Assembly: GCA_963815195.1 (NCBI GenBank)
Contig: CAWFGE010000014.1
Location: forward strand, 64,001-128,000
Source: an uncultured Planctomycetaceae bacterium
GTDB taxonomy: Bacteria > Planctomycetota > Planctomycetia > Planctomycetales > Planctomycetaceae
Reading direction: 5' to 3'
Length of the DNA stretch: 64,000 bases
Shown: piece after piece, positions 16,952 through 40,905 of the stretch
Position numbering within the stretch: position 1 is the stretch's first letter
How the letters are laid out: the number at the start of each line of letters is the position of its first letter
The notes under the pieces: generated by a model
The model's input: only the letters and a program-made list of their open reading frames with translations
Databases searched by the model: none
Told to the model about the DNA's origin: nothing
Program-made: the position numbers and the translations under genes

Positions 16952-16978
16952 TGTCACTCTTGGCATTCCCCCGGCGTA
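16952..16978 (+). promoter_or_regulatory. Putative ECF-sigma promoter of the cas10 operon
   Basis: TGTCACTC-N15-CGTA, ~45 nt upstream of cas10. Confidence 0.7.
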
Positions 16979-17020
16979 TTGCTTCTACAGACTTCTTGGT
17001 TCGATTGAAGCGTAAAGTGA

Positions 17021-18652
17021 TTGGTGATGATGCGATTCTTGGTTGCGTTCGACGTCCCCAGCATTAAGCAGTATGTGTTCGGCACCGACCCTCTGCGGGA
17101 AATTCGCGGGGCGAGCAGCCGGCTGGTCACGCTCAATTGCTATCGAATGAAGTCGGTGCTCATTGAAGAACTCGGGGACGATCAGGTCGATCAGGTTTAT
17201 GCCAACGGGGGGACGGCGCAGTTTATCATCACCGCCAATACTGAAAGCGACGTCGAAGAAGCCTGCCAGAGGCTTGCTGGGGTGTTCCGTGAGGAAACGG
17301 GCGGGGAAGTCGGACTGGTTTGGGGAATCGAAGAGTACCGGGAAAGCGAAGGCGACTATAAACGTGCTGTCCAGCAGGCCCATCGGCGGCTTCGGCAGTG
17401 CCGGGATTCCGCGCGGGACGAGCCAGTTTCCCTTTTGATGCCTTTGGTGGCCGAGTGCAAATCCTCGTCTCACTTGCCGGCTAGCCAGAAGAGTTTGCGG
17501 GATGGACGGTGGCAGTTGATCTCCCGCGCGGTGGAACAAAAAGAGAATGTGCCCCGCGAATCCCTCTGGGAGGCGTGGATGCAATTCGTGAACACCCACT
17601 TCGCTCAAGAAGGTTGGGAAAACGAGAGCCAATGGAAGAATCTCCACTGCGGTGAGTTCTCGGAGTTGGTCGGCCAGGAGAATTCCGACTTGGGGCTGGT
17701 TTATGCCGATGGCAATGCGATGGGCAAGGTCGTGCGAAAGCTCAATACCCCCGAACGCAGCCTGGCATTCAGCGAGATGATCGACCAGAGCGTGCAGCGG
17801 GCGTGTCACCGGGCATTGGCTCAGGTTTGTGGGAAAGACATTGCGCAGCTTCGCCGATCGAACTTTGCCAACGGCAAACTGCGAGCGGAAATTCTCTTGT
17901 TGGGCGGCGACGATCTGTTGGTCGCCTTGCCGGCGGAGCGTGCATTGGCGTTTGCCAAACTTGTGATGGAGGAATTTCAAGCCGAGACCGAAAGCCACCT
18001 CAACACCCTCGATCCGGATTTGCAGAAGTATTTCCGTGCCGATCGACCGTTTTCTCTCTCGTGCGGGGTGGCGATTGGCCGCGTGACCTTTCCCTTTGCG
18101 TTGTTGCTAGAACTGGCCGAGGACTTGCTCAAAGAGGCTAAGCGGTGCGGGACTGCGCAGCAACAGAGCGACCGCACGAGCGTGGCGAGCTTTCTGGACT
18201 TCCATCAGGTCCTGGGCTCGGGCAGCTTGGAACTGGCCACGCTTCGGGACGAGGATTTCCGAATCTCAACCAATAGACCCCGCACCCTGCGACCGTTCCA
18301 GATTACGAAAGGACCGCAAGAATCCCCGGCGGGAGCGGTGGAGTTCAAGCGATTGACGGACGCCGTGGGAATCCTCAAACGGTGTGAGCCGGGCATTCCG
18401 CGGACCAAACTGCACGCCTTGCGGGAGGCGGCGCTGACCGCTTCGGAAGCGAAAGCGGAACAGCGGAGCCGCGAACTGTTTGCCCGTTTGACGGAAAGGC
18501 AACGGCAGGCGCTCTGGAAGGCGATGGCCTGTTTGGATGAAAACGGACGCGTGGAAAATTTCCCCTGGATTTCCTGGCGTGGCAAAACCCCCACGCCCTT
18601 GCCCGACCTCGTGGAAGCATTCGATTTATGGCAATCCTACGACTCGATTTGA
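17021..18652 (+). CDS. cas10: Type III (III-D-like) Cas10, no HD nuclease, intact Palm/GGDD cyclase
   Basis: FDVPSIKQYVF...REIRGAS, VYANGG, YADGNAMG, LLGGDDLL, SLSCGVAI; only 543 aa, no N-terminal HD domain. Confidence 0.93.
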   Translation: MVMMRFLVAFDVPSIKQYVFGTDPLREIRGASSRLVTLNCYRMKSVLIEELGDDQVDQVYANGGTAQFIITANTESDVEEACQRLAGVFREETGGEVGLVWGIEEYRESEGDYKRAVQQAHRRLRQCRDSARDEPVSLLMPLVAECKSSSHLPASQKSLRDGRWQLISRAVEQKENVPRESLWEAWMQFVNTHFAQEGWENESQWKNLHCGEFSELVGQENSDLGLVYADGNAMGKVVRKLNTPERSLAFSEMIDQSVQRACHRALAQVCGKDIAQLRRSNFANGKLRAEILLLGGDDLLVALPAERALAFAKLVMEEFQAETESHLNTLDPDLQKYFRADRPFSLSCGVAIGRVTFPFALLLELAEDLLKEAKRCGTAQQQSDRTSVASFLDFHQVLGSGSLELATLRDEDFRISTNRPRTLRPFQITKGPQESPAGAVEFKRLTDAVGILKRCEPGIPRTKLHALREAALTASEAKAEQRSRELFARLTERQRQALWKAMACLDENGRVENFPWISWRGKTPTPLPDLVEAFDLWQSYDSI

Positions 18653-19395
18653 CGTTTCAGTTGCAATTTGTGACCGACTGGCACGTGGGCAGCGGAGCGG
18701 GTTCCGCTTTGGTGAACCGCCTGCAGGCCCGGCGGCGGATGCGGTCTTGGGGAGAGGTTCCGTTTGTGCCCGGGGCTCAACTCAAAGGCGTACTCAGGCA
18801 ACAGTGCGAACGGTTGGCCCTGGCCCTGAACTTGTCGGATGTGCTCGACCCGCATGACCAGGAGGCCGCATTGGCCGCGCACTTTGTTCCGCTTCCGCAA
18901 TCGCAGATTTTCGTGGATCGCTTGTTTGGGTCCCGTTATCAAGGCGGGTGTTTGTTCCTGAGCGATGCCCTGCCGGTGGACGATCACAGCGACGGGGCGG
19001 TTTCGCCAGGGACAACCGTGCGGCAGCGGACGGCGCTCGATCGGTTGACGGGCACGGTCAAGCATCAGCATCTGTTCGCCACGGAGATCGTCTCCGTATC
19101 TAAGGGGGCTTATGCCGCCCGGTTGCGGGCACGGCATCCCTCCGAGGCCCTGACCCACAATGGGGGAGGTTTGCCGTACGAATACGCTTTGTTGGTGACG
19201 GCGCTGTTGGGCATCGAATCGCTCGGCGGCGACAAAAGTGCCGGCCGCGGTCAGTGCGTGATCACCGTGGATGAGTCGACTTTGAAATGGAATCGCACGC
19301 CGCAATCCCTGGATGCCATGTTGGCCCCCTTCCGAGAGGATGGGTGGCAAGAGTACTACCAACTGATGATCGACGAAAAGACTGGCTCGGAATAA
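18628..19395 (+). CDS. csm3: Cas7-group RAMP (Csm3-like)
   Basis: WHVGSG, PFVPGAQLKGVLRQQCE, RLFGS, RTALDRLTGT, LGGDKSAGRG. Confidence 0.85.
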   Translation: MAILRLDLTFQLQFVTDWHVGSGAGSALVNRLQARRRMRSWGEVPFVPGAQLKGVLRQQCERLALALNLSDVLDPHDQEAALAAHFVPLPQSQIFVDRLFGSRYQGGCLFLSDALPVDDHSDGAVSPGTTVRQRTALDRLTGTVKHQHLFATEIVSVSKGAYAARLRARHPSEALTHNGGGLPYEYALLVTALLGIESLGGDKSAGRGQCVITVDESTLKWNRTPQSLDAMLAPFREDGWQEYYQLMIDEKTGSE

Positions 19396-19518
19396 CCAAT
19401 CGCAAAACGGCAACCGCACGCCTTCTTTACCCTTATTGAGGCGTGCCCTGGCGGAATCAAATCGAAATCTGAACTTGGAAAGCCCTGTTGGTGAACCGAT
19501 ATCTCGATCAAAGCCTAT

Positions 19519-20958
19519 TTGGAATCGCCCTTGGCGATCAAACAGTCGCGGCAGTCGCAACGGTCGACGGGCGTGAAATCCATCAGCGGCACCATGCTGC
19601 GGGGGGCACTGGCCCGGTTGTACCTGGATCGCCACGGCTCTGCGGATGAGGGCTTCCGCGAACTGTTCCTGGAAGACAGCGGCTCACGGTTCGGACCGCT
19701 CGATCCCGCTCCGAGGACGCTGCCCCTCACGGCGGCGGCCTGCAAACGGACTCCGGGGTTTTCCAAGGCTGGTCAGCACGGGATGGCCGATCAATTGTGG
19801 TTACGGATCGGCCTTGCCCTCGCCGAACAGGATGGGCGAACCGTACCCATTGACGAATTGGAACAGCCCTTTCTGGATTGCGGCGTCTGTGGGGCCGCGA
19901 TGCGAGACGAACGGGGGTTTTACGAGTGGCACGATCAAACGTATCACGCCAGCCGGACGGATCGGCGGCGGGTGGAGACGCACGTCGGCATCGACCGCCA
20001 CACCATGACGGCGGCTCGGTCCATTTTGTATTCCAATGAAATTCTCGAACCGAACACACCCGTTTTGATCAACTGGATCGTTGCAAGAACAGAGAACGCT
20101 GAGCGGTTACGACAGTTCTTGAAGGGTGAAGATCTCTTTGATTGGTTAGCCAACGACAAATTCAATGCTGCTCGGTTACAACAGTTCTTGAATGGTGAAG
20201 ATCTCATTGATTGGCTCAGAAGCAAGGAAACGAATCCCCGGCAGTTGAAAGGCTTCTTAAAAGGGGAAGACTTGGTTGTGTGGCTCCGCACGCCTCCCCA
20301 GAAGATTAGAGCGTTGATCGAACTGATGGATGTGGAGGATCTCACCGGCTGGATCGAAACCACGGACGACAACGCCCGGCGATTCCAAGAGTTGCTGGAG
20401 GAAGAGGAAAACTGCATTGATGTCGGTCATGCCCGCACGCGGGGTTATGGTCGGGTCCGGTTGGAGTGGGGTGAACCGTTCGCCGCGGCAGGCGAGTCCC
20501 CAACCCGGTGGAACCAGTGGAGCGAGGACCTGAAAGTGTTCCTGAAAAGCGAGCCGTTTCGACTGGAGGGTCCGCAAGTGGAAGGATTTTACTTTTCGTT
20601 GGGATTGCCCTCGGGCGCGATTGTGGTGGATGAGTTGCTGCGCTATTCCCTCGATCCTCGCCAAGCATTGTCTGGGAACCGCCCGGAGATCGAATGCCTT
20701 CTCACGGTCGCCCGGCATGAGCGGGTGCGGGGCTGGAACGCCGCCCACGGATTGCCTCGCCAGGATGAATGGGCCATCGCCCGCGGCAGCGTCTTTGTCT
20801 ATCGCTTCACGGGGGAGGACAAGACGGGTTTGTTCGATTGGTTAAACACCTTGGAACGGGAAGGGCTGGGACTCCGGCAGGGCGAGGGATTTGGCCAAGT
20901 CGAAGTTTCGGCACAATTTCATCGCGATCTTTCCCGGCAGGAAGGAACATCGGCATGA
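19519..20958 (+). CDS. csx10: Csx10-like RAMP (Cas5 group) with an internal repeat insertion; true start probably ~19491 (frameshift)
   Basis: ISGTMLRGALA, THVGIDRHTMTA, VGHARTRGYG, GWN..HGLPR..IARGSVF, GLGLRQGEGFG. Confidence 0.85.
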   Translation: MESPLAIKQSRQSQRSTGVKSISGTMLRGALARLYLDRHGSADEGFRELFLEDSGSRFGPLDPAPRTLPLTAAACKRTPGFSKAGQHGMADQLWLRIGLALAEQDGRTVPIDELEQPFLDCGVCGAAMRDERGFYEWHDQTYHASRTDRRRVETHVGIDRHTMTAARSILYSNEILEPNTPVLINWIVARTENAERLRQFLKGEDLFDWLANDKFNAARLQQFLNGEDLIDWLRSKETNPRQLKGFLKGEDLVVWLRTPPQKIRALIELMDVEDLTGWIETTDDNARRFQELLEEEENCIDVGHARTRGYGRVRLEWGEPFAAAGESPTRWNQWSEDLKVFLKSEPFRLEGPQVEGFYFSLGLPSGAIVVDELLRYSLDPRQALSGNRPEIECLLTVARHERVRGWNAAHGLPRQDEWAIARGSVFVYRFTGEDKTGLFDWLNTLEREGLGLRQGEGFGQVEVSAQFHRDLSRQEGTSA

Positions 20959-21386
20959 GTCAGTCTATCAGCATCGAACAACAACGGAAACTGGATCGGG
21001 AACTGGAACAGCCCGACCGCCGAGCCGCCTACGAACAACTGGGCGAGGCGCTCTACCGGGCGTTCGGCGGAACAGAGAACGTCAGCACGCAGGTGCGGAA
21101 CCTGCAACAGACTGCCGCCACCGCCCGGCGGTTTGCGGACATCGAAGCCTTCGTGAAAAACCAGATGGGCCGCAACACCAAGGATGCCAAAGCCTGGCGC
21201 GAACCCGGCGTGGGCCAGACCGTACTGGATCAACTGGCCGAACTGCGGGAGATCGCCCGGCAGCATGCCGAGACGGACGAAGACGCCCAAGCCAATCGGT
21301 TTTGGTTGGCCCGGAATTGGGTCCGGGTGGTCGTGGGAGCCTATCTCTACGAGAAAGCCGTGGCGGGAATGCCCTCGGCCCATTAA
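20955..21386 (+). CDS. Small alpha-helical subunit (Cas11/Csm2-like)
   Basis: 143 aa, helical, TQVRNLQQ..FVKNQMGR..AW..AYLYE; ATGA overlap with csx10. Confidence 0.7.
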   Translation: MSQSISIEQQRKLDRELEQPDRRAAYEQLGEALYRAFGGTENVSTQVRNLQQTAATARRFADIEAFVKNQMGRNTKDAKAWREPGVGQTVLDQLAELREIARQHAETDEDAQANRFWLARNWVRVVVGAYLYEKAVAGMPSAH

Positions 21387-21414
21387 ATGCCCTCGGCCCA
21401 TTAGGAGACTTTCC

Positions 21415-22107
21415 ATGCTTCAAGCGGAATGGAATCAGATGGCGGATGATGTGCTGGCCCCGGAGGCGAGGCGATTCTTGAACGAGTGGATCGCTACCGC
21501 CGAGAGCTTGCGCGACCAGGCTCTGCAAAAAGAAGAGGCGGAAATACAGTCGAGAGAGTCCGATCCCGAAAAGGTTGCCAAGCAGTTGGCGAAGCTCGAA
21601 ACGCGCTTGGCGAAGGTAGTGCCTTTTCCGATGGAGCGGAGTCAGATCGTGGGGCTCCGGCAGGTGGCGGTCAATCCGCCATCGCACTGGAACGATCACC
21701 AACCCTCGCTGGTGGCCTCGTTCGCCAATCATCAAAAAGAGAAATTCACACGCAGTTTAAGGAAAGAACAAGACGAGTATGAAAAACGGCGTCCAGGCAA
21801 ATCGTTCAAAGAGGTGATCTTGAAGTCTCAGGATTATTACAGGCAACAATTCTGGGAACGGGTGCGAAAGCTGACCGATCTACAAGACAACCCGCCCGGC
21901 GAATTGATTCAACTGGCTGTCGTCAGGAACTATCTCCCCGCCGAGTACCGGGATGAGGCCATGAAAGAGTTGAGCCGCAAGCAACAACGACTCCGTAAAG
22001 CGGAGCGGGACCGCTGGTTTGGTGAGCAATGGATCCCGCACACGATCCCGATGTTCTTCGAGTACTTTGCGGTCGAGTATTTGTTTGAAGCCGCGAAAGG
22101 GAAGTGA
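21415..22107 (+). CDS. Second, longer Cas11-like helical protein
   Basis: SQIVGLRQVA..FANHQKEK..FW..EYLFE parallels the preceding small subunit; aggag RBS. Confidence 0.55.
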   Translation: MLQAEWNQMADDVLAPEARRFLNEWIATAESLRDQALQKEEAEIQSRESDPEKVAKQLAKLETRLAKVVPFPMERSQIVGLRQVAVNPPSHWNDHQPSLVASFANHQKEKFTRSLRKEQDEYEKRRPGKSFKEVILKSQDYYRQQFWERVRKLTDLQDNPPGELIQLAVVRNYLPAEYRDEAMKELSRKQQRLRKAERDRWFGEQWIPHTIPMFFEYFAVEYLFEAAKGK

Positions 22108-22223
22108 CAAACGCAAAAAACGAACACGCACCCCACGATGCCCCGGGAAAAGGATGAAAAAGCCGCTTCTTTACCGTTTTGAAGTGGCTCGGGGCATTCA
22201 CGAGAATGGATCAAGGACAAGCA

Positions 22224-23093
22224 ATGACAAACAACACGACCGAGCGGGGGTTTTTCTCCCTGAAGCGAAAAATCCAGATCGAGGGCGAGATCACCTTCAC
22301 CACGCCTTGGCGGATTGGATCGGGTCGCGAGGGCGACATCAGCGATCTGGGAGTCCTGCTCTCTCCCACGGGCGAGCCGGTACTGCCGGGCAGCAGCCTC
22401 AAGGGTGTTTTGCGAAGCACCTGTGAACGATTGGCGTACGTCCTCGGGTTGGAGGCCTGCCAGTTGGACAGCCATTCCGCAGGGCTGTCCTATGTTTGCT
22501 CCAGCGATGTGAAAGCGTTTACCAATTGGAAAAAGGAACATCAAAAGGAATGGGAAAACCTTTCTGGTTTGCCGGCCGCCGAGCGGCTGGATTGGATCGC
22601 CCAGCACACCTGCGATGTCTGCCGGTTGTTCGGGTCGCCTTTGATGAAAAGCGTTTTGAAAATCTCCGACGGCCGACTCTCGGAATGGGCCGGCGTGGTG
22701 GAAGTTCGCGATTCGGTCGTATTGGACCGCGACAGCAAAACCTCGCGGAACAAGTTCGACTTCGATGTGGTCCCGCCGGCCAAGTTCGCCATCCGCTTGG
22801 ATTTGGACAACCCAACCGATGCCGATCTGGCCCTCTTGGGAGCGGGGCTGTTCGAGTGGACGGCGGGCGTGTCCATTGGCGGTTTCACCAGCCGGGGGTT
22901 GGGGCAGGCCGAACTCACCATTACCGGCCTGCGGTCGGCGAACCTTTCCGATCCCAAAGAGCAAACCCAATACCTACTCGGCAAAACCGCCGAGGAAAAG
23001 CTGACTCTCCAGAAGGATTGGGAAGGGGACTTTCAAGAGTTCATCGAAAAGCAGTTGAAGAAAATCAAAGATCAACAAGAAACGCAAGGTTAA
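22224..23093 (+). CDS. Cas7-group RAMP (Csm3/Csx7-like)
   Basis: WRIGSG..SD, PVLPGSSLKGVLRSTCE, CDVCRLFGS, IGGFTSRGLG. Confidence 0.88.
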   Translation: MTNNTTERGFFSLKRKIQIEGEITFTTPWRIGSGREGDISDLGVLLSPTGEPVLPGSSLKGVLRSTCERLAYVLGLEACQLDSHSAGLSYVCSSDVKAFTNWKKEHQKEWENLSGLPAAERLDWIAQHTCDVCRLFGSPLMKSVLKISDGRLSEWAGVVEVRDSVVLDRDSKTSRNKFDFDVVPPAKFAIRLDLDNPTDADLALLGAGLFEWTAGVSIGGFTSRGLGQAELTITGLRSANLSDPKEQTQYLLGKTAEEKLTLQKDWEGDFQEFIEKQLKKIKDQQETQG

Positions 23094-23204
23094 GAACGCT
23101 CGGCACAACGCACCCCAAAAAGAGGAAATAAGCCCTTTTTACGGTTTTTGCGGTGCGAGGCCGAACGCCTCGGATGAATAAACCCCAATCAAAAAGGTTC
23201 CTGC

Positions 23205-24161
23205 ATGCTCCGCAAATGGTTTTGTCAGGCTGAGATCACGATTGAGATTCACCCGGTCGATCCGGTTTTGGTGAAAAGCGGGTACGCCACGTTTTCGGGG
23301 CCGGACATGGTTCCCGTGCAAACTCTGCGGGATGGCGAAGAGACGTTCTATCTGCCAGGCACGTCGCTCAAGGGGGTGCTCCGCAGCCATCTGGAGCGGA
23401 TCTGCCGTTCGCTGAAGGAAGGCGTGACGTGTTTGCCGTATTATTTCGATGCGAAGAAAGACGCCCAGAACGTGCCCGTGGCCAGCGAGCAGGGGGCGAT
23501 CAGTTGCGGCAAGCGGTTGGAAGGCGACCGCACCACCGCCGAGATATACCGCCTCAGCTGCCCCGCGTGCCGGGTGTTCGGCTCCCTCAAGTTCAAGGGA
23601 CGAGCCGGGCTTTCGGATGCCTACGCGCTGCCCGACCATAAGCCCGTTCGGGAGGACCGCAACAACGTCTGCATCGACCGCTTTACCGGCGGTGTGGCTC
23701 AGGGACCGTTCGATATGACGGTGCTCGTCGGTGGGGTCTATCGAACCACGCTGCAAATCACCAACTTTGAACTCTGGCAACTGGCGGGGATTCACTTCCT
23801 CTTGGCCGATTTGGAAGATGGCCTGCTCAGCGTGGGCAGCGGGCAAAGCCGCGGCCTGGGCCGGGTGGAAGGGAAAGCCACCAGCTATCGACTGACCTAC
23901 CTGCAAAAGCCGCCGCGGTTGTGCGGGCTATTCCAGTTTGCGACGGCGGAGGAACGCCAAGCCTACGGCCTGTCCGCCGAACCCGGAAATCTGCCCGAGT
24001 TGCCCTCTCCCAAAAGTTCGCGAGGGCTGCGAACAGTCTACGATGTCACCGGCGAGTGGCAAAACTGGACGGAAACCCTGGCGGGCAGTTTCCCCGCGTT
24101 TCTGGATTGGTTCGCCGAGAACGTCGGTCCCCTCGCCAGTCAAATGGAGGTCCCCGCGTGA
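23205..24161 (+). CDS. Cas7-group RAMP (Csm3-like)
   Basis: YLPGTSLKGVLRSHLE, CPACRVFGS, IDRFTGG, VGSGQSRGLG. Confidence 0.88.
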   Translation: MLRKWFCQAEITIEIHPVDPVLVKSGYATFSGPDMVPVQTLRDGEETFYLPGTSLKGVLRSHLERICRSLKEGVTCLPYYFDAKKDAQNVPVASEQGAISCGKRLEGDRTTAEIYRLSCPACRVFGSLKFKGRAGLSDAYALPDHKPVREDRNNVCIDRFTGGVAQGPFDMTVLVGGVYRTTLQITNFELWQLAGIHFLLADLEDGLLSVGSGQSRGLGRVEGKATSYRLTYLQKPPRLCGLFQFATAEERQAYGLSAEPGNLPELPSPKSSRGLRTVYDVTGEWQNWTETLAGSFPAFLDWFAENVGPLASQMEVPA

Positions 24162-24748
24162 ACCCGCAGACTGCCATCTTGAAATCCGCCGACCTGAACG
24201 CGGCCGAGAAGGTGTCCGCACTGATTGCGGGTCTTCCCCGGCCGGACCGCCAGCCGCGTTGGGTGTGGCTGGCGGCCCCCGATGGGTGGACGTTGGATTT
24301 TCTCCCCAGCCCGGAAGGCTCGGTCCGCTGGTATGCCGCCCATGCTCGTCCGAAAGATGTTCCCTTGGCCGAGGTGCTGCCTCGCGCGGAGGAAGGGCGG
24401 GTGTTTGATCCCTCGGGCGAATTGCGGTTTCGGCGGTTGCCGCACCCCGGAGGGGCTTCGATTTGGCGGGCGGTCTTTTTGGGGGATGAGGAGTGGTTCC
24501 CCGATTGGGGCCACCCACAAAGCGAACTCGGTGGACTCCGTCGCACCCGCACGGCGTACTACCTCTGGGGTGAGCAAACCCCGCAGACGCCGCGCGAGTG
24601 GGTGGAGTTACAAATCCCGCACCGCTTCGACTACCCCATGTTGGATCCGAATGCCTCGCGGGTGACGCTGGAAGTGGAACTCTGGTGCGACCCCAGCGGG
24701 CGAGTCCACTTCCAACGCTTCTGCGGTCTGCGAGGAGAGGGCCGATGA
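24158..24748 (+). CDS. csx19: Csx19-like type III-D subunit
   Basis: EGRVFDPSGELRFRR, YYLWG, C-terminal FQRFCGL; lies directly before the insert-containing Cas7. Confidence 0.7.
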   Translation: MNPQTAILKSADLNAAEKVSALIAGLPRPDRQPRWVWLAAPDGWTLDFLPSPEGSVRWYAAHARPKDVPLAEVLPRAEEGRVFDPSGELRFRRLPHPGGASIWRAVFLGDEEWFPDWGHPQSELGGLRRTRTAYYLWGEQTPQTPREWVELQIPHRFDYPMLDPNASRVTLEVELWCDPSGRVHFQRFCGLRGEGR

Positions 24749-24864
24749 GAAAACGCAAAACGGTAAACGCCCCGCACCACACACCTAAAAAAGGGTAAAG
24801 AAAGGCTTCTTTACCCTTTTTTAGGTGCTTCCCCGAACGCATTGAGAAATCGAAAGGCCGACCG

Positions 24865-26016
24865 ATGCCCCAAGGACAAAGCTACTGGAACCCTTACCGT
24901 TGGGTGCCGATGCCCGACGGCCCGCCGCACCGGCAGACGCCGGCCTATTACCATCGTTTGGAAAACCTGCGGGGCCGCCTCACCTGCGACGTGGAAGCGC
25001 TGACACCGCTTCTGATCGGCGACGGGGGACCGTCGGACAACATCCAATTTGTGAAGACTCCCGGCGGCACGGCGTACGTTCCGGGGACTTCGCTCAAGGG
25101 GATGCTCCGGCAGGTGTTGGAGGTGGTCAGCGGATCGGCGGTGCCGTTCGGTCAGCGGAACAATGCCGATACGAACCATCAAGCCGATCAGGCCAGCGCC
25201 GGTGCCGGATCGAATTGGCAGTTGGACGCCGCCGCCCGGTTGTTCGGCTACATGGACAACAGTCGGTCTTACACAGGAGAGGTCCGGATGGGCGACGCCC
25301 CACTGAAGTCCTCACCCACCCCAGCTTCGGAATGGCCGGCCTACACAGTGGAAACTGGCACGCCCAAACCGACTCACACGGTTTTCTACAAAGGACACGC
25401 CCACGGCCTTGCCAAGTGGAAGTTCTATCACCACGCCACGGGCGCGGAGGGACTCCGGGAAAATTCCACCGTCCCTGAGAACAGCCTTCGGAAGGTCAGG
25501 CCGGCACCGTCGGACAGTCTGTTCGGGCCGTTTACGCTGGCGTTTCAGAACCTGACGGAAGCCGAACTCAACCTGTTGGCCTATGTTCTCGTTCTGGAAG
25601 AGAACGTGACCGTCACCCTCGGCCCCGAGGCGATGGGAACGGAGGAGGGCTGCACCTTGAGCGGACCGCTCCGGCACAAGCTCGGAGCCTGCAAACCGCA
25701 GGGCGGCGGCAGCATTCGGATCGTGCCTCTCCAGATGCAACTCGAAGCCAATCCGCTGGCCCGTTACCAAACCGGGAACCGCCAAGTCCACTCGCTCGAA
25801 GGCGAACCGCTTCAGCAGGAACTCCGCCGGCGGGCCAACCAGGTGGCGAAGCAGATTCCGCAAGCGACCCGCGAAGCTTTTCACGCGATGCTGGTTTACG
25901 ATCCCAACGATCCCCGCGCGAAGCATCTGCAGTATCCCGATTGGGACTTCTTTCAAAATGAGAAACAAAAGTCCAAGCTAGAGACTCCGCTCACGAAACT
26001 CAAACCGACCCTTTAA
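24865..26016 (+). CDS. Terminal Cas7-group RAMP of III-D type (NPY motif)
   Basis: WNPYRWVP, LTPLLIG, VPGTSLKGMLR, RLFG, KFYHH, HKLGACKPQGGGS. Confidence 0.85.
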   Translation: MPQGQSYWNPYRWVPMPDGPPHRQTPAYYHRLENLRGRLTCDVEALTPLLIGDGGPSDNIQFVKTPGGTAYVPGTSLKGMLRQVLEVVSGSAVPFGQRNNADTNHQADQASAGAGSNWQLDAAARLFGYMDNSRSYTGEVRMGDAPLKSSPTPASEWPAYTVETGTPKPTHTVFYKGHAHGLAKWKFYHHATGAEGLRENSTVPENSLRKVRPAPSDSLFGPFTLAFQNLTEAELNLLAYVLVLEENVTVTLGPEAMGTEEGCTLSGPLRHKLGACKPQGGGSIRIVPLQMQLEANPLARYQTGNRQVHSLEGEPLQQELRRRANQVAKQIPQATREAFHAMLVYDPNDPRAKHLQYPDWDFFQNEKQKSKLETPLTKLKPTL

Positions 26017-28186: not shown

Positions 28187-28213
28187 TACGCCTTTCCTTT
28201 CCAAAAAGGGACA
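28187..28213 (-). promoter_or_regulatory. Putative ECF-sigma promoter of cas6
   Basis: Minus strand TGTCCCTT-N15-CGTA (plus strand tacg-N15-aagggaca). Confidence 0.65.
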
Positions 28214-30048: not shown

Positions 30049-31100
30049 ATGACTGACCGAAGATCGAATCTGCCAGACGATGAAGCCGCATTCCGGCGCG
30101 ATGAAGTGGAGCAAGCCTACGCGCTCCCGGGGCTAGACGTCTTCGATCACGGGGGGCCAGTCGATGACGCCGTGCGCAAGAGCGGCGCTTCAATTGGCCC
30201 AAGCGATCGGGTACTGCCGGCTGTTCGGAGTCGAGATTGGCGAACTCGATGGCGTGCTCCCGGCGGACGTGGCCATCGCAGCGTGCCGGGAACTCGCCGA
30301 TCGGGTAGCCGCCTGGACAGAGCAACTCCAGGAACTGCCAGAACGGTATTTCGGAGCAATCGACGGATTCGAGGCCGAAGCGGCCTCCGACGACGTGTTG
30401 ATCGCCTGCATGGACTCGTGGGCGACCACCGCGGCGATCGAGGAAGCCTACACGCGCTGTGGGCCGGAGGACGACGTCGATACATTCTCCGCCGAATTGG
30501 ACCGGCTTGGGGACGCCCTGGACGAGTTTGACCGAAAGGCCCGCGAGCACGCCGACTTGTTGTCCACGCTCGCGAAGACCAACCTCTTGTCGAACTGGCG
30601 GTCGTATCTCGTCGAGCCGTGGAGTGAATTGCTGCCCTGGTGGCTGGATGGAACGCTTGAACGAACGGCTGAGGCCGTCGACCAGCTGGTGGCGGCCACC
30701 GTACCCGGTGAGTCCGACCGCCGTGCGGAGAAGGCCCGAGACCGATCCCAGATCACCGGCCCGAGCCCGCCTTGCGCCCGCGATGGCCGCTGCCGGTCCT
30801 TTGGAAGCCGGCAAAACCTATTCCTGGGATTCTCCAGATGGACGGTACCAGGCATTGCTCACGCTGACCACGACTTGGCAGGAGACGGTTCGGCTCGGGT
30901 TTGTGCACCGCGAGAGCGGAGCACCGACCGCCGAACTCAAGGGCCGCAAGGCCCGACTCGGCGATTTGCCGCCGGTGCCCATCGACGACAAGGGCCTCGC
31001 AGAGTTCGCCACCGCGTCGGTTCTTGGGCAGCCGTCGCGACTGCATCTCGATGAGGACGATCGAAACTGGACGCCCGTTGGACCGGAAGACAGTCTGTAA
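30049..31100 (+). CDS. Putative anti-sigma / protease substrate (analogue of Csx30/CalpT); two apparent frameshifts
   Basis: Acidic helical N-domain ending LLPWWLDG, a low-complexity linker with AMAAAG, then a beta-rich C-domain; assembled from ORFs 30034, 30164 and 30459. Confidence 0.55.
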
Positions 31101-32679: not shown

Positions 32680-32706
32680 TGTCCCTTTCTGCGGCTGGGG
32701 TGCGTA
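32680..32706 (+). promoter_or_regulatory. Putative ECF-sigma promoter of cas2-cas1-RT
   Basis: TGTCCCTT-N15-CGTA. Confidence 0.65.
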
Positions 32707-32814: not shown

Positions 32815-33090
32815 ATGCACTGGATTATCGCCTACGACATCCATGCCGACCGTCGCCGCGCCCGCGTCGCCCGCCGACTGGAACGCGCCGGACTTCGGGT
32901 ACAGCAGTCGGTGTTCCTGGTCGAAGAATCCAGTCCGCAAATCCACGACCTGTTGCACGAGCTGTCTCGCCTGATCGCGAAGTCAACGGACCGGGTAGCG
33001 GCATGGCCGTTGCAGGCAAACTGGATTGCCGCGTTTGAGGAGGTCGGTCTGTCGTCCGGCCCCGTCCACGAGCCCACCGTCATCTGGTGA
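32815..33090 (+). CDS. cas2: CRISPR-associated Cas2
   Basis: WIIAYDI..RRARVARRLERAGLRVQQSVF; gaggag RBS. Confidence 0.93.
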   Translation: MHWIIAYDIHADRRRARVARRLERAGLRVQQSVFLVEESSPQIHDLLHELSRLIAKSTDRVAAWPLQANWIAAFEEVGLSSGPVHEPTVIW

Positions 33091-33163
33091 AAACATGCCG
33101 CAACGAAACCACGACCCTTCCAAAACCCCAACTTCACGCCGCCGGGCGGCCGGTTCCAAGACG

Positions 33164-34120
33164 ATGGCCGAGACCGTGCATTTAGTGGGTCCTGGCGTGC
33201 TCCGGGTCCGTAACCGGATGCCGTGCTGGGAACCGATCGACGGCGAAGCGTTGCTGTTGCATCCGGAGCGGCTCCAGACCCTCCTGCTCCACGGTTCGGT
33301 GGATCTGACCGGGGCGGCCTTACGGGCGCTGTGGGGGCACGGGGTCCAGGTCAGTTTTCTGAGCGTCGAAAGCCACCGCTTATTGGGACGCATCAACCCA
33401 CCAGCGGCGCGGGCCGGGGCGCTGGCGTTTTGGCAACACCAGGCTGCCTGTGATGCCGCGTTTGCGTTGGAGCAGGCGAGGCGCCTCGTGCGGGAGAAGC
33501 TCGAAAGCATCGAGCGGGTCGCCGCCCATCTCCGACGTCACGGCCACGCCGAGGCCTCCGATCTCCGCCATTTAATCGGCGCGGATCTGCGGCAGGTCGA
33601 CCGGGCCACCTCGCTGGAAAGCCTCCGCGGTATCGAAGGCGCCTCGTCCGCCCGCTGGCACCGTCTGCTCCGCACGTCGTTTCCGAGGCACCTGCCCTAC
33701 CCGGGGCGGAAGGCCCATCCGCCGACCGATCCGGTCAATGCCCTGCTCTCGCTCGGTTACACCTTTCTGTTGGGCCGGACCCAGACCTTGATCGACGCGA
33801 TTGGTCTCGACCCCTTGGTCGGCGTCTATCACCAACTGCGTTCCGGACGGCCCGCCCTGGCCTGCGATCTGATCGAGCCGTTCCGCGTGCCGGTCGTGGA
33901 CCAGATGGTGCTCGCCCAGATCCGGCAGCGATTCTTCCTCAAACATCATTTCCACGAAACGTTGCAGGGCGTCCGGCTCCAGCAGTCGGACTTTCGGCGA
34001 TTCCTCGAGGCCTTCGAGCAGCGACTGACTGAAACCCAAGACGGGCAGACCTTGCGCGACCACATCGAAAGTCGGGTGGAGCAATTCGCCCGCGAGGTAC
34101 GAAGCCACGCGAAGCAGTGA
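33164..34120 (+). CDS. cas1: CRISPR-associated endonuclease Cas1
   Basis: LRGIEGASS, PPTDPVNALLSLGY, GLDPLVGVYH, ALACDLIEPFR. Confidence 0.93.
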   Translation: MAETVHLVGPGVLRVRNRMPCWEPIDGEALLLHPERLQTLLLHGSVDLTGAALRALWGHGVQVSFLSVESHRLLGRINPPAARAGALAFWQHQAACDAAFALEQARRLVREKLESIERVAAHLRRHGHAEASDLRHLIGADLRQVDRATSLESLRGIEGASSARWHRLLRTSFPRHLPYPGRKAHPPTDPVNALLSLGYTFLLGRTQTLIDAIGLDPLVGVYHQLRSGRPALACDLIEPFRVPVVDQMVLAQIRQRFFLKHHFHETLQGVRLQQSDFRRFLEAFEQRLTETQDGQTLRDHIESRVEQFAREVRSHAKQ

Positions 34121-35427
34121 GACGACTGAAAAAGCGAACCAGCGACACCGCTGGATGCAGGTCATTCCGCAGACCGGTCGGAAGGGACAGTCATGGCAGC
34201 CATCGAGCGAAGAGTGTGGGCTATGCGGCGATCTGCGACGTCGAGATCCTCCGGGAGGCTTGGCATGCGACGCGACGGGGCGGGTCGGCTCCCGGTGTTG
34301 ACGGGCAAACCCTTGCCGAGTTCGAGGCTGACGTCGAGCAACGGTTACGGAAGCTGGCAAATGATCTCCGCAACCGGCGCTATTGCCCCTCACCCTTTCG
34401 CCGATCGTTTTTGAGAAAAACCGGCGGCGGCCATCGCCCACTCGCAATTCCTACCATTCGGGACCGCATCGTTCAGCAGGCCATCCGTCAAGTGCTTGAA
34501 CGCGTTCTCGAACCAAACTTTGCGGCCTCCAGCTTTGCTTACCGTCCCAACCTGGGCGTCGAGCAGGCAATGGATCGGTTGCTTAAGCAGTTGCACCGCG
34601 GGCACACCTGGGTGCTGGAGTCGGACGTGGAGAACTTCTTCGATTCGATTCATCTTCAGACCCTTTGGGACCGTCTGGGGAACGTCGTTGCCGATCGTGA
34701 GTTGCTCGACTTGGTGCGCACCTCACTCACTGCCGGTGTGGCGGGAACACGGACCGTCCGAAAATCCTTCCAGCCTCGCTGTGGCCTGCCCCAAGGCAGC
34801 CCCCTTTCGCCATTGCTGTCCAATTTCTACCTGACACCCTTCGACCGGGTGTTGGAGAAACAAGGCTACGCGCTGACGCGCTACGCGGACGACCTGGTCG
34901 TGAGCTGCCCCGATCGTCGGCAGGCAGCGCGAGCCCGAGAGGACGTGACCGCCGCGCTCCGATCGTTGCGGCTCCGAGTCAGCGTGCCGAAGACCCGAAT
35001 CATCAATGCCCGGTGGGAGTCGTTCGAGTTCCTGGGGTTCCTGCGACACCCGCGCTACCTCTGGCCCTCGCCCGCCAAGGTCACTCAGTTCGAGACCTGG
35101 ATCAAGCAGGTCACCGAACCGCCGGCACGCACTTCGGTCGACAGTCTAATCAAGGAGTTGAATCCACCTCTACGGAGTTTCGGTTATTATTATCGCCGCT
35201 GCGATGTAGGCCGCTTGTTCCGACGGTTCGACCGAATCGTTTGCCGCCGCCTTACGCAGCTTGCGCGGTCGATCGAAAACAGGACGCCGCGAACAGGGTC
35301 CGGTTGGGCCGGGCGCGGGCTCGTATCCTTGACGTCAATAAGGGATGGACGTGATCCGCATCCCCCGGACGGAAGAGACGGTTATGGCGGCCCGATTGTC
35401 CCTTGCGGGAACCGCACTTCCCCCTGA
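34117..35427 (+). CDS. Stand-alone CRISPR-associated reverse transcriptase (group II intron-like)
   Basis: APGVDG, RPLAIPTIRDRIVQQA, SFAYRP, SDVENFFDSI, GLPQGSPLSPLLSNFYL, RYADD, FLGF; start overlaps the cas1 stop; leader follows. Confidence 0.9.
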   Translation: MRRLKKRTSDTAGCRSFRRPVGRDSHGSHRAKSVGYAAICDVEILREAWHATRRGGSAPGVDGQTLAEFEADVEQRLRKLANDLRNRRYCPSPFRRSFLRKTGGGHRPLAIPTIRDRIVQQAIRQVLERVLEPNFAASSFAYRPNLGVEQAMDRLLKQLHRGHTWVLESDVENFFDSIHLQTLWDRLGNVVADRELLDLVRTSLTAGVAGTRTVRKSFQPRCGLPQGSPLSPLLSNFYLTPFDRVLEKQGYALTRYADDLVVSCPDRRQAARAREDVTAALRSLRLRVSVPKTRIINARWESFEFLGFLRHPRYLWPSPAKVTQFETWIKQVTEPPARTSVDSLIKELNPPLRSFGYYYRRCDVGRLFRRFDRIVCRRLTQLARSIENRTPRTGSGWAGRGLVSLTSIRDGRDPHPPDGRDGYGGPIVPCGNRTSP

Positions 35428-35715: not shown

Positions 35716-38700
35716 GTCTCAACGAACGCCCCCACTTCGAGGGGATTGAAACGGGAGCAGTCGGTGCAGCGGGAGCAGTCGGAGCAGTGTCTCAACGAAC
35801 GCCCCCACTTCGAGGGGATTGAAACAGCGAGTCCGTCTTGGACCCGCCGCCCGCCCCCCCTGTCTCAACGAACGCCCCCACTTCGAGGGGATTGAAACGT
35901 AAACGCCTGAGCGAACACGAGACCGATGTTTTCGTCTCAACGAACGCCCCCACTTCGAGGGGATTGAAACGCTACGATGAGCCACTCACCGCGAGGCTGG
36001 TCAGGTCTCAACGAACGCCCCCACTTCGAGGGGATTGAAACTCGGGCTGGTGGAAGACGTCGAAGAGGAGCTTCCTGCGTCTCAACGAACGCCCCCACTT
36101 CGAGGGGATTGAAACTCCTCGCGCGATCGGCTGCAGTAAACGGTCTGGAAGTCGTCTCAACGAACGCCCCCACTTCGAGGGGATTGAAACCCGCGTTCGC
36201 GTCCGTCACGATAAAGTCAGTCGCGTCTCAACGAACGCCCCCACTTCGAGGGGATTGAAACAATGGCCCCGCAGACGCACGGCGTTGGACATTTAGCGTC
36301 TCAACGAACGCCCCCACTTCGAGGGGATTGAAACGGGGGGGGACTGCGTGCATTCGCGTGTCCGCCGAATGTCTCAACGAACGCCCCCACTTCGAGGGGA
36401 TTGAAACGCTGATGTCCTTCGCAAAGTCTCCCAGGAGGCCCCGTCTCAACGAACGCCCCCACTTCGAGGGGATTGAAACCCGGCTCAATTTCGCTTCAAT
36501 GCCTTCATTTGATAGAGTCTCAACGAACGCCCCCACTTCGAGGGGATTGAAACGTGGCATGTTTGAGCCAAGAGCCTCTCGCTCTATCGTCTCAACGAAC
36601 GCCCCCACTTCGAGGGGATTGAAACAACCCTCGCAATTGCCCAAGTATCCCAGACATCACCGTCTCAACGAACGCCCCCACTTCGAGGGGATTGAAACCG
36701 TGCCAGCATCGTCCCAGTTGACCCGCATGTCGCGTCTCAACGAACGCCCCCACTTCGAGGGGATTGAAACCGGTGGTGCTGTCGGGGGTCGGCATGATGT
36801 TGGCCATGTCTCAACGAACGCCCCCACTTCGAGGGGATTGAAACAATTGCGGCAACAGCCTTTTGGTGGTCCCGTGCGGATTGTCTCAACGAACGTCCCC
36901 ACTTCGAGGGGATTGAAACCAGACCCAGGGTCCGACGCCAATAATTTACGCGTCTCAACGAACGCCCCCACTTCGAGGGGATTGAAACCTTGAGCAACTG
37001 GATGAGTTCATCCGTGGAAAGAACGTCTCAACGAACGCCCCCACTTCGAGGGGATTGAAACTAGAGCATTGCAAGCCTGACCCAGTGTGATGGTTTTGTC
37101 TCAACGAACGCCCCCACTTCGAGGGGATTGAAACTCCATTCAGGAATGTGCTGACAAGTCGGCATTTTCTGGTCTCAACGAACGCCCCCACTTCGAGGGG
37201 ATTGAAACTAGAGTTCAAGCTCTTCGCTAACCCGTGAGCCCCAGTCGTCTCAACGAACGCCCCCACTTCGAGGGGATTGAAACAAGCTGGTGCAGCACCT
37301 GCCGCAGAGGCTCGATTATGGTCTCAACGAACGCCCCCACTTCGAGGGGATTGAAACGTCGAGGCGATCAGTGCGGGTCATCTTGCACACGAACCGTCTC
37401 AACGAACGCCCCCACTTCGAGGGGATTGAAACCATACACGGCAATGAACGTAAACAGCAGAATGCCGAGTCTCAACGAACGCCCCCACTTCGAGGGGATT
37501 GAAACCGAACAGTTATGCACCCGCTTACGCGAGTTATAACAAGTCTCAACGAACGCCCCCACTTCGAGGGGATTGAAACGAGAAATCCATGCGGTCACCG
37601 GCATCAGCATCGTCGCGTCTCAACGAACGCCCCCACTTCGAGGGGATTGAAACTATCAATTCGTGCATTTGTCATGGCAATTCTCCCCTCGCGTCTCAAC
37701 GAACGCCCCCACTTCGAGGGGATTGAAACGGAGAGCGTGATTGTGACGACTGCCCCGGAATAGTTCACGTCTCAACGAACGCCCCCGCTTCGAGGGGATT
37801 GAAACAAGAGAAGATTCTTCCCACAACTGTCGACATAGGTCGGCGTCTCAACGAACGCCCCCACTTCGAGGGGATTGAAACGACGGTCAGCCATTGGTCC
37901 GGGTCGCCGGGGTCGCGTCTCAACGAACGCCCCCACTTCGAGGGGATTGAAACACGATCGAAGAGTCTGACGTGCTGACGAACGTGGAATCGGGTCTCAA
38001 CGAACGCCCCCACTTCGAGGGGATTGAAACTCTAACTTATCCTCTATAGTAACTTGTGTATAAGGTCTCAACGAACGCCCCCACTTCGAGGGGATTGAAA
38101 CGGCGGGTTTTTTTTACGCCCACACGCCCCACAACGCGTCTCAACGAACGCCCCCACTTCGAGGGGATTGAAACATTCAGTGGGGCGGTCCGTGGACATC
38201 CCCAGGCGTCCCGTCTCAACGAACGCCCCCACTTCGAGGGGATTGAAACTTGATTGACTGCGGAGACGACGCCGGGGTCGTTGCGTCTCAACGAACGCCC
38301 CCACTTCGAGGGGATTGAAACAATACTGGCTCTGGGAATGTCACAAGAGGAATCAACGTCTCAACGAACGCCCCCACTTCGAGGGGATTGAAACCTGGGG
38401 GGGACTGTGTAGTGCATTCGCGTGTCCGCCGAAGTCTCAACGAACGCCCCCACTTCGAGGGGATTGAAACCTTTCGCAACCTTCCTTAGAAGGGAGACCG
38501 CCCCAGTCCGTCTCAACGAACGCCCCCACTTCGAGGGGATTGAAACAAGTCCCGCATCGGAGGGTTCCGGCGGGGTTCTCTCGTCTCAACGAACGCCCCC
38601 ACTTCGAGGGGATTGAAACACGACAGGCGGGCAGTCCCAGAGATGGGCCACGTCCAGTCTCAACGAACGCCCCCACTTCGAGGGGATTGAAACATTTGTC

Positions 38701-39361
38701 TCCAAAGTTTCGCATTGGCATTTTTGTCTCGTCTCAACGAACGCCCCCACTTCGAGGGGATTGAAACGCGTCGCCAGACGCCGCGCACCGAACAGGGGCA
38801 CAAAATCGTCTCAACGAACGCCCCCACTTCGAGGGGATTGAAATGTTGTTGCTGTCGATTATCCAGCCGGACTTTTCTCGTCTCAACGAACGCCCCCACT
38901 TCGAGGGGATTGAAACGTCCCGGGGCGACCCCGTAGAGCGTGGAACGACTCGTCTCAACGAACGCCCCCACTTCGAGGGGATTGAAACAATTGCGGCAAC
39001 AGCCTTTTGGTGAGCCTGTGCAAATGTCTCAACGAACGCCCCCACTTCGAGGGGATTGAAACTTCAGGTCGGCGTGGCTCGGTGGGGAGGCTGTGTAGTG
39101 GTCTCAACGAACGCCCCCACTTCGAGGGGATTGAAACAGTCTTCGAGTCCGTCTCGTTGAGGGGGTCCTCTAGTCTCAACGAACGCCCCCACTTCGAGGG
39201 GATTGAAACGTCTTCGTTATCTGCAAATGCTGATAAGAAGGCCAAAGTCTCAACGAACGCCCCCACTTCGAGGGGATTGAAACGTGATATTCAGTTGATC
39301 GGCAAGGTTCGGCCCGTCAATCTCGTCTCAACGAACGCCTCCACTTCGAGGGGATTGACGG
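35716..39361 (+). CRISPR. CRISPR array, 50 repeats / 49 spacers (manual count), repeat GTCTCAACGAACGCCCCCACTTCGAGGGGATTGAAAC (37 nt)
   Basis: Regular 37-nt repeats with ~32-41-nt spacers; 3' ATTGAAAC handle; CCCC/GGGG stem; degenerate last repeat at 39325. Confidence 0.99.
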
Positions 39362-39472: not shown

Positions 39473-39499
39473 TGTCACTCAATCGTCGGCCGTTGCGTA
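39473..39499 (+). promoter_or_regulatory. Putative ECF-sigma promoter of the LemA-like gene
   Basis: TGTCACTC-N15-CGTA. Confidence 0.7.
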
Positions 39500-39546
39500 G
39501 AGCCTATAGAGTTTTCCCGTGCAATCGCATGAGCCGGAGGTGTGAG

Positions 39547-40090
39547 ATGGCGTCCAATGACCTGGTGAACCTGCTCTGGGCTAGTTTCTTGCCGTTGAGC
39601 GTGCTCCTTTTCGTGGCCGCCCTCGTCGGTTTCTATGCGTGGCAGCTCCACACGGAGCTTAACGCCCGCCTGGAACGCCTCAAGGCCCTAGCGGCAGATG
39701 TGCGGTGTGCACGCGAGCGTCGGCGCCGTGGACCGCTCGGGCCAAAAGCACGCGAGCCAGCGAGGGGGTCGCGGGCTCAAAATCAATGCCGACATGTGGC
39801 CGGACCCGCGGGGGGCGGCAACCCACGAACGGGCCTTCGATGCCGCTCTTGAGGCGCAGGCCGGCGAACAGGCCGTTCGGGAGCGGCTGCATCGTGAGGC
39901 GGCCGAGTACAACGCGCGTCTTCGGTCGTTTCCCGCGCTGCTGTTCGTCAGGTGGCTGGACTTTCGGCCTTGGCAATTCCGTCAGCCCCACGCAAACCAC
40001 CGCAGACCTCGCGGGCATGGCAGTCGGACTGGAGCCGGCCGGGCACGGAGGAGGTCGCCGAGCAAACCCCGCCGCCGGGGATTTTCGTAA
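39547..40090 (+). CDS. LemA-like membrane-anchored protein (frameshift ~39730)
   Basis: N-terminal TM helix, RERRR, WPDPRG, EYNARLRSFPALLFVRWLDF resemble the LemA pattern. Confidence 0.65.
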
Positions 40091-40150: not shown

Positions 40151-40177
40151 TGTCACTCGACCACGCTAGGTCCCGTA
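40151..40177 (+). promoter_or_regulatory. Putative ECF-sigma promoter
   Basis: TGTCACTC-N15-CGTA, ~50 nt upstream of ATG 40229. Confidence 0.7.
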
Positions 40178-40228
40178 ACTACTACCAGACACTTGACAAG
40201 ACGGTCCCGACACCTGAAGGAAGAAACC

Positions 40229-40837
40229 ATGCCTGCTGCCAAACACGGCACCCACAAGACTTCGCTGCCCCGGACCCTTGGCTGCCCGGAGTGCGGCGGT
40301 CGCATGAACCATAGCGGTCGTGGCCGAGCCCCGGGTTCTGCCTTTTACTTCTGCGCCGCGTGCCCGGCGTCGAAGCAAGGCAAGGAACTGTGGCTCGGAC
40401 GGGTGATCCGCACCGGCGCAAAGGGGTTCGGTTTCCTCAGCCTCGATGGCCTGCCGGCCGTGGACGCGGTCCACTTCCGCCACTTGGATGTGGTGTCGCC
40501 CACCGGATCCGCCGACCCGCTCCAACGCGACGACCGGGTGCTGGTCCTGCTCGCCACGGACCCACAGCGTGCCCGCCGCGTATGGAAACTCCGCCGGCCA
40601 GAGAGCAACGGCCGGGCGAACACCAACGGCCAGGGTGACCGCCATCGCGGAATCATCACACGAGTGGTCGACCCCGCCTATGGGTTTCTCACTGAGATCG
40701 GTAGCGGCGAGGATTACTTCGTCCACTGTAGCCAACTCGCGGAAGGGATCCGCTGGGAAGCAGGCGAGAAGGTGACATTCCGACCGGTCCGCACGGTCAA
40801 GGGGACGCAGGCCCACGAGGTTCGCCGTGAGACCTAA
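40229..40837 (+). CDS. Zn-ribbon + two cold-shock (OB-fold) domains
   Basis: CPECGGRM..FYFCAACP; KGFGFL..VHF; YGFL..DYFVHCSQL..GEKVTF..KGTQAHEV. Confidence 0.75.
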   Translation: MPAAKHGTHKTSLPRTLGCPECGGRMNHSGRGRAPGSAFYFCAACPASKQGKELWLGRVIRTGAKGFGFLSLDGLPAVDAVHFRHLDVVSPTGSADPLQRDDRVLVLLATDPQRARRVWKLRRPESNGRANTNGQGDRHRGIITRVVDPAYGFLTEIGSGEDYFVHCSQLAEGIRWEAGEKVTFRPVRTVKGTQAHEVRRET

Positions 40838-40878
40838 GGGGGACAGGGCGGGTATCTCCCCTCCAAGATGTCCCGACG

Positions 40879-40905
40879 TCTCACCCTGTGGTGAGCCTGT
40901 TCGTA
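40879..40905 (+). promoter_or_regulatory. Variant ECF-sigma promoter
   Basis: TCTCACCC-N15-CGTA, 36 nt upstream of ATG 40942. Confidence 0.5.

Follow-up and report, generated by a model that had tools for sequence, protein, structure and literature searches.

CalpL-CalpT-CalpS, a system of type III-A/B CRISPR loci, is the closest working model for the locus described here. It joins a sensor of cyclic oligoadenylate (cOA) to a Lon protease with the Ser/Lys dyad S152/K193 (10.1101/2021.12.06.471393), and cleavage of its anti-sigma factor, CalpT, at LAA|A lays bare the degron on which release of sigma depends (10.1101/2024.05.08.593097). The available text of these two papers names no promoter for the sigma factor CalpS. 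The stretch analysed here (the window) spans 64,000 nucleotides of contig CAWFGE010000014.1 from an uncultured Planctomycetaceae bacterium. Its CRISPR locus, assigned to type III-D by gene content, encodes a sigma factor resembling the extracytoplasmic function (ECF) type, a candidate anti-sigma factor and a protease with Lon and CARF domains (Lon-CARF), and from it both a putative promoter and a putative regulon can be read.

Other precedents each share part of this arrangement. In the type III-E CASP system (Cas7-11-Csx29, Csx30 and CASP-sigma), a protease-released sigma factor has three sites in its own locus, one at cas1 and the others at two unknown genes. Reporters furnish the proof (PMC10028731), and the sites read TCACAT-N14-CGAC (PMC10028731 supplement). 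In Myxococcus xanthus, the ECF sigma factor DdvS uses several promoters of a single island to drive both its own gene and a type III-B interference operon; it is released by the membrane anti-sigma factor DdvA, a TPR-CHAT protein that answers an unknown outside signal (PMC11506125). CARF-Lon proteins have been described as predicted, uncharacterised and speculated to kill the host (PMC9704534), and the accessible text of PMC11229360, PMC12669027 and PMC7826278 holds nothing further on them. A literature search, with subscription papers and preprint supplements outside it, found no description of the present module or motif.

The original prediction held that a motif repeated across this locus is the promoter of its own sigma factor, and that cOA, by way of proteolysis and sigma release, closes a positive-feedback loop. 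The consensus TGTC(A/C)(T/C)-N17-CGTA is very probably that promoter, judging from where it occurs. We put the probability of the full cOA-protease-sigma loop at about 0.66.

A motif repeated across the locus

The original prediction fitted the strict pattern, TGTCMCTY-N15-CGTA, by eye to sites in the window, so its genome-wide test is partly post hoc; homologous loci from other genomes provide the independent tests. The window contains five matches, all in the places and orientations first proposed, against 0.12 expected, and none of 100 shuffles reaches five. The 8.87-Mb assembly likewise contains five at the 15-nt spacer, every one within the CRISPR locus. Other spacers from 10 to 21 give 0–2 matches each genome-wide and none in the window. 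All five exact sites are bipartite, share the one spacing and are sense-oriented, with a start codon 33–108 nt downstream. They are listed here with two weaker sequences and one of a different type.

16952..16978, plus strand: putative promoter site TGTCAC-N17-CGTA, 48 nt before the cas10 ATG (17027)
28187..28213, minus strand: putative promoter site TGTCCC-N17-CGTA, 33 nt before cas6
32680..32706, plus strand: putative promoter site TGTCCC-N17-CGTA, 108 nt before cas2
39473..39499, plus strand: putative promoter site TGTCAC-N17-CGTA, 47 nt upstream of the LemA-like gene
40151..40177, plus strand: putative promoter site TGTCAC-N17-CGTA, 51 nt upstream of cold-shock-domain gene 1
28293..28319, plus strand: weak site TGTTCC-N17-CGTA at the head of the sigma module; the sigma ATG follows after 240 nt and a small open reading frame (ORF), at 28402, after 82 nt
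40879..40905, plus strand: variant TCTCAC-N17-CGTA, 36 nt upstream of cold-shock-domain gene 2
16891..16919, plus strand: housekeeping-like TTGCAC-17-TACTGT, just upstream of the cas10 ECF site

The proposed intergenic placement needs a qualification. Three of the five sites (those of cas6, cas2 and cold-shock-domain gene 1) fall in the 5' extension of the mechanically longest ORF, but Pfam start and ribosome-binding site place the true starts downstream, as for cas2 at 32815 and the cas6 ATG at 28153. The CRISPR leader was searched for the motif and contains none, as first reported. The 40879 variant had been offered as a further site; it carries two mismatches, a level at which 8 matches are found against 10.7 expected by chance, and alone it has no statistical support.

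Reducing the pattern to the core TGTC(A/C)-N18-CGTA yields 27 genome matches, against 17–72 at other spacers. Five of the 27 lie inside the 25 kb of the locus, and eight have promoter-like placement genome-wide, compared with 3–8 at other spacers.

The motif in other genomes

Scans for Lon-CARF homologs used a four-row alignment, a six-row alignment having given no usable pattern; 30 homolog loci dereplicated to 21, totalling 245 kb. TGTC(A/C)-N18-CGTA matches 19 times in 11 of these 21 loci, and other spacers from 12 to 25 give 0–4 matches. The motif also emerges blind. Among all pairs of a 5-mer and a 4-mer at spacers 14–22 in 18 homologous loci (three close kin dropped, window excluded), TGTCA-N18-CGTA ranks first of 2.36 million possible pairs, with 13 occurrences in 8 loci against 0.54 expected. 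The conservation in homologous loci that the original prediction named as a check is found.

The homolog sites stand before sigma in L053, L055 and L071; before cas10 in L055, L071 and L063; before cmr1 and CARF7 in L053; before the divergent cas2 and cas1 of L063; and before the anti-sigma candidate in L057, L060, L062 and L065. Both III-D and III-B loci carry them. The weak 28293 site, degenerate in itself, gains some support from these full counterparts before sigma and from its rank with a homolog-trained matrix (below). Since positions 7 and 8 of the −35 element first proposed vary among homologs (0.07 and 0.14 bits), that element, TGTC(A/C)CT(C/T), was over-specified at its end; TGTC(A/C)(T/C) is conserved, and the sequence-derived consensus becomes TGTC(A/C)(T/C)-N17-CGTA.

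Type III loci that lack the module served as controls. A sample of 401 genomes from the phylum contains 76 places with a Cas10 palm domain, 62 of which were examined as 64 stretches (1.06 Mb). The place in the window itself was set aside, as were two module loci that were tallied separately and 11 places lying for the most part on short contigs; one module contig, L153, was dropped. The control stretches give 6 matches in 5 of 64, a background level (3–14 at other spacers). Lon-CARF loci in which no sigma was detected (G210, G135 and G282) have no motif match, and neither of the genome's two other cas1 loci has a site within 20 kb. The genome contains 45 sigma region-2 matches; only the locus sigma has a near-match starting with TGT within 800 nt, and for one other sigma gene there is a GGTCC variant at a distance of 683 nt. 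The motif therefore tracks the module rather than type III systems generally or the host. This distribution upholds the original link between an ECF-type promoter and the locus sigma.

L053 (3364-11374) carries, between cas6 and a III-B cmr operon, a tandem pair of sigma/anti-sigma/Lon-CARF modules that belong to different sub-branches. L057 (1-16850) contains seven relaxed xGTCA-N18-CGTA sites and no cas10 in its 16.8 kb; the sites precede CARF7, the anti-sigma gene, an unknown 325-aa gene, a UPF1-like helicase gene and a GIY-YIG gene, and the L057 Lon-CARF heads a 1136-aa frame. In L055 (14955) and L071 (15280), a full site lies within csx10, 153 nt before csm2, where the window has none; it is either an internal promoter or a coding coincidence in two close kin.

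The sigma, candidate anti-sigma and protease module

The locus is a multi-subunit one, with Cas10, Csx10, Csm2, Csx19 and separate Cas7 proteins in place of the Cas7-11 and TPR-CHAT Csx29 of type III-E. Sequence comparison makes its module a set of four genes: ECF sigma, protein X, anti-sigma candidate and Lon-CARF protease.

17027..26016, plus strand: interference operon (cas10, cas7, csx10, csm2, csm2-like ORF, cas7, cas7, csx19, cas7)
26037..27170, plus strand: CARF7-DUF2103 / CARF-RelE-type effector (PADLOC 2.4e-122)
27222..28153, minus strand: cas6, divergent, with its ATG at 28153 and, in this assembly, a single frameshift close to the 5' end
28560..29304, plus strand: ECF-like sigma factor (Sigma70_r2; tblastn with intact homologs; ECF structures)
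29301..30017, plus strand: protein X, between sigma and the anti-sigma candidate
30049..31100, plus strand: anti-sigma candidate, made up of a helical domain, an Ala-rich linker (MAAAG, at 30783) and a beta C-domain
31167..32561, plus strand: Lon-CARF protease (PADLOC CARF_m2--CARF_LON 3.8e-87; S156/K197 dyad; Csm6-like CARF)
32815..35427, plus strand: cas2, cas1 and reverse transcriptase (RT)
35716..39361, plus strand: CRISPR array, 50 repeats and 49 spacers, leader on the left
39547..40090, plus strand: LemA-like membrane protein gene (weak Pfam match, E 0.046); frameshifted in this assembly
40229-40837: cold-shock-domain gene 1
40942-41607: cold-shock-domain gene 2

The protease retains its catalytic residues. 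S156 and K197 of the Lon domain are invariant in 110 of 110 alignment rows, and they stand 41 residues apart, like those of the CalpL dyad. The sensor is different: CalpL uses SAVED, whereas the CARF domain here is closest to Thermus thermophilus Csm6 and carries a DxTxGxK motif. Because of this likeness, cyclic tetra-adenylate (cA4) is the suggested ligand, by analogy; the ligand type of Csm6 lies behind the suggestion. The family includes 411 clusters at E<=1e-30, and Lon and CARF were both matched in only 6 of the 401 genomes of the phylum sample. In L017 (G135:C1:361800-365200), Lon-CARF and a Cas10 palm domain share one 1127-aa open frame, possibly a protease-cyclase fusion; no sigma was detected nearby.

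The anti-sigma candidate is a protein of 340–390 aa. In nearly every module for which the available DNA reaches far enough, its gene lies directly 5' of that of Lon-CARF. The model of the L055 homolog has helices only in residues 1–285 (DSSP), a low-confidence linker at 279–292 and a beta C-domain. The linker carries (L/V/I)AA in 21 of 22 rows, compared with 12% of other windows, and a relaxed linker pattern occurs in 11 of 13 scored rows of a wider set; the window's own copy reads MAAAG. Profile and Foldseek comparisons turned up no solved relative, and the matches did not go beyond generic helical bundles (Z<=8.1). The C-domain, which was not folded alone, gave one weak match, to CrdA (Z 6.4, root-mean-square deviation 3.5, 83 aligned); its counterpart in CalpT is Ig-like (DUF2080). 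Pfam gave no CHAT or TPR match, so the DdvA type is not matched. Neither profile nor fold comparison lists a match to Csx30, a missing match that is compatible with kinship.

Does this protein bind the sigma factor? A complex model of the intact L055 pair scored 0.82, against 0.00 for the best of three controls; 116 of 157 solved complexes attain the score mark, compared with 2 of 215 mismatches. Contacts agreed across runs by at least 70%, and partner pLDDT (the predicted local distance difference test) was at least 78. All confident contacts on the candidate fall in residues 122–250, N-terminal to the linker; those on sigma involve residues 82–103 (the region 2 motif) and 215–230 (a putative region 4 helix). 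The model supports binding, and the interface fits an anti-sigma factor that would stay bound after the cut until degraded.

Like CalpLTS, then, the locus combines a cOA sensor fused to Lon, an adjacent two-domain anti-sigma candidate with an LAA-type linker site and a small beta C-domain, and an adjacent ECF-like sigma factor bound, in the model, by the N-terminal part of its partner. CalpT has a MazF-like N-domain and the homolog modelled here an all-helical one; MazF is beta-rich. The additional gene X is a further difference, and the module belongs to neither CalpLTS nor III-E CASP. The latter shares with it a sigma factor released by a protease (a prediction for the present locus), sites within its own CRISPR locus (including one for cas1) and a related promoter shape. 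CASP, however, couples Cas7-11 directly to CHAT, whereas here multi-subunit III-D or III-B complexes would act through second-messenger sensing. The −10 element and spacing differ, and the putative regulon here takes in cas10/cmr1 and cas6, which the three CASP-sigma sites do not. Moreover, the 246-aa sigma falls outside the CASP-sigma family: its best specific NCBIfam match is the III-E sigma NF041236 (E 6.3e-08), at 32.8 bits far below the cut-off of 100. Pfam recognizes only Sigma70_r2 in it. The original prediction missed the CASP-sigma and DdvS precedents.

Gene identities, like the intact dyad, the conserved linker, the motif and its specificity for the module, are computational observations. 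A few neighbouring features may also be recorded. Cas10 has GGDD at 295, and HD is absent from its first 80 aa. Between the weak promoter and sigma, a small ORF (28402-28698) has a strong GGGAGG ribosome site, a hydrophobic start and no family match. An ORF after csm2 (21184-22107) looks like a second small subunit; it is conserved in L055 and matches no family. Two stretches 74% alike, 26.3 kb apart (15512-15811 and 41814-42113), flank the CRISPR locus and are listed with a second pair (43902-44201 and 63422-63721); the flanking repeats look like part of a duplicated glycosyltransferase region. Array spacer 15 is identical in 21 of 37 bases to G000:C17:219536-219556, elsewhere in the genome.

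Alternative readings and the proposed loop

Several observations weigh against the loop, or against its generality. Sites 28293 and 40879 are degenerate or weak. A full-width matrix trained on 18 homolog sites puts the cas10 site at rank 1 genome-wide, the 39473 site at rank 41 and the 28293 site at rank 133 (score 11.0), and scores the cas6 (28213), 40151 and 40879 sites below 3; it over-fits, giving too much weight to spacer and flank, and was not used to predict the regulon. Three homolog matches fall in coding DNA (antisense in cas10 of L048, and the csx10 sites of L055 and L071). The excess of 19 matches in homologous loci over 6 in controls has a p value of 8e-10 that is overstated, the loci being kin and base composition differing. 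The strict site is missing from ten of the 21 homologous loci. Five of these ten are short contigs of 1.6–8.5 kb; the long ones (L044, L049, L050, L069 and L073) show no cas genes in their flanks, and sigma is detectable yet the strict site absent in L044, L049, L050, L059 and L073. In genome G330 the module lies apart from the cas operons, with no site at the module or at either cas10 region, and the 8 matches genome-wide (11 in the control) show no excess, none recognisably at cas genes. Given G330 and the long site-less loci, the module is not always accompanied by this promoter. The strict pattern, run over 40 relatives, gives scattered matches in 20, like the reversed control. Finally, the modelled complex is that of a homolog pair, not of the window's own copy.

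Could chance explain the motif? The pattern was fitted by eye and its two-mismatch matches are at chance level, but de novo recovery in independent loci, dependence on one spacer and background levels in controls effectively refute a post hoc pattern. A second alternative, that another host ECF sigma factor reads the motif and has captured the locus, was examined because the motif resembles the ECF41 promoter, TGTCACA-n16-CGTC (PMC3426412), in overall length and in its TGTCA −35 core. The window motif differs in its CGTA −10 and in positions 6–7, which are T/C and free; ECF41 has a fused C-terminal extension, whereas the window sigma has none detected and has a separate anti-sigma candidate instead. 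With 45 sigma region-2 matches the genome offers other possible readers, but the core shows no excess at the motif spacing, the other sigma genes lack an upstream site (bar the distant GGTCC variant), and across genomes the motif goes with the module. Capture by a host sigma is improbable.

It is somewhat less far-fetched, though still quite unlikely, that the circuit is real in the family and dead in this strain, its sigma and anti-sigma genes recent pseudogenes and its sites relics. Each gene lies in three frames in this assembly, with two frameshifts, a feature that the original prediction missed; these four breaks in 1.8 kb, together with those in cas6 and the LemA-like gene, lie above the assembly-wide mean, which is about 0.12 per kb, so gene decay may have occurred. 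The assembly is itself error-rich, however: 18 frameshifts in 148 kb hit 16 of 123 conserved genes, and a second sample has 5 in 63 kb, hitting 4 of 52 (two of these five frameshifts fall in a gene that we take to be recA). At 30184, the point of a frame change in the candidate, one base is missing from a short-read contig of an independent run (depth 2.6), which contradicts one anti-sigma break. (That DNA run covered 14 of 30 bins, including this one break, with the sigma gene and motif sites outside its coverage; it also has one extra base after 29998, in protein X.) The aligned pieces show no in-frame stops beyond the break points, and the promoter sites are intact.

The last alternative accepts the sites as promoters of this sigma factor, but would have release occur otherwise than through cOA-activated Lon-CARF (by protein X or another stress, for example), or would give Lon-CARF another substrate, leaving a priming switch like DdvS. 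Protein X, which has no family in Pfam, PADLOC, NCBIfam or Atlas, is kept between sigma and anti-sigma in G330, L049, L050, L055 and L071. (Atlas searches with X and with the candidate's C-domain returned only sub-0.9 unnamed clusters.) Complete modules without the motif lie far from cas genes (G330:C1:198897-203255, L049, L050 and L073), and in G330 sigma region 2 reads LDRW where most sigmas read LRN. Lon-CARF is present where no sigma was detected (G210, G135 and L069), and the speculation in a review that cleavage of host proteins is how CARF-Lon kills (PMC9704534) would also fit. Set against this, the candidate that directly precedes Lon-CARF in nearly all sufficiently long modules carries a CalpT-like site, and X went undetected in a number of further modules, among them the motif-bearing L053, L057, L062 and L063. 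Release by another route seems unlikely, if less so than decay or capture.

The cOA-driven loop can be stated as a sequence of predicted steps, with ligand, cleavage, degradation, transcription and feedback drawn by analogy. TGTC(A/C)(T/C)-N17-CGTA would serve as −35 and −10 of the locus's ECF-like sigma, defining a small, locus-confined regulon: the interference operon, cas6, the sigma module, cas2-cas1-RT and accessory genes. Transcription of cas2-cas1-RT probably runs on into the array; no plus-strand terminator-like site is listed between cas2 and the array, a weak result, as both the sigma-70 and terminator scans performed at chance level. The product of the gene that precedes the protease gene would hold sigma. 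Binding of target RNA would lead Cas10 to make cOA, probably cA4, which on the CARF domain would activate Lon, whose cut in the anti-sigma would fall within the Ala-rich linker. What stays bound to sigma, the N-terminal part, would then end in an LAA-type degron and be removed by ClpXP-type proteases, and free sigma would raise the whole system, cas10 and protease included, as positive feedback on a basal level. As the loop requires that level, the TTGCAC-17-TACTGT sequence deserves mention as a possible basal promoter for cas10, a weak inference; the consensus scan did not report it. Of the release pathway first proposed, then, the anatomy is in place: a CARF-Lon dyad, an LAA-type linker and modelled sigma binding. 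The trigger would be CRISPR's own messenger, unlike the outside signal of DdvA.

On a broader reading, whose chances we judge to be even, this is a third, independently assembled CRISPR protease-sigma pathway, combining CARF-Lon with a new family of helical anti-sigma factors, with a distant relative of CASP-sigma and with protein X, which forms a closed self-amplifying loop and plugs into III-D, III-B and non-cas defence islands. Here cOA from Cas10 or Cmr would induce transcription of the genes for the interference complex, for Cas6, for the protease module and for acquisition by RT-Cas1-Cas2. The module would re-seed its promoter before each operon, making type III immunity inducible, and spacer acquisition from RNA would be gated by active infection.

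For cOA-released sigma factors, whose target promoters the available text of the CalpS papers does not name, the locus supplies putative targets. CARF-Lon proteins, until now only predicted and guessed to be killers, gain in the window's CARF_m2 member a protease specified together with its candidate substrate, predicted cut site, sigma factor, promoter consensus and putative regulon, and L055, L071, L053 and L063 offer intact homologs. If the proposed loop is correct, type III CRISPR would amplify itself transcriptionally and RT-linked spacer acquisition would be tied to infection, and the Lon-CARF family, in all its clusters, would offer a switch from cOA to transcription.

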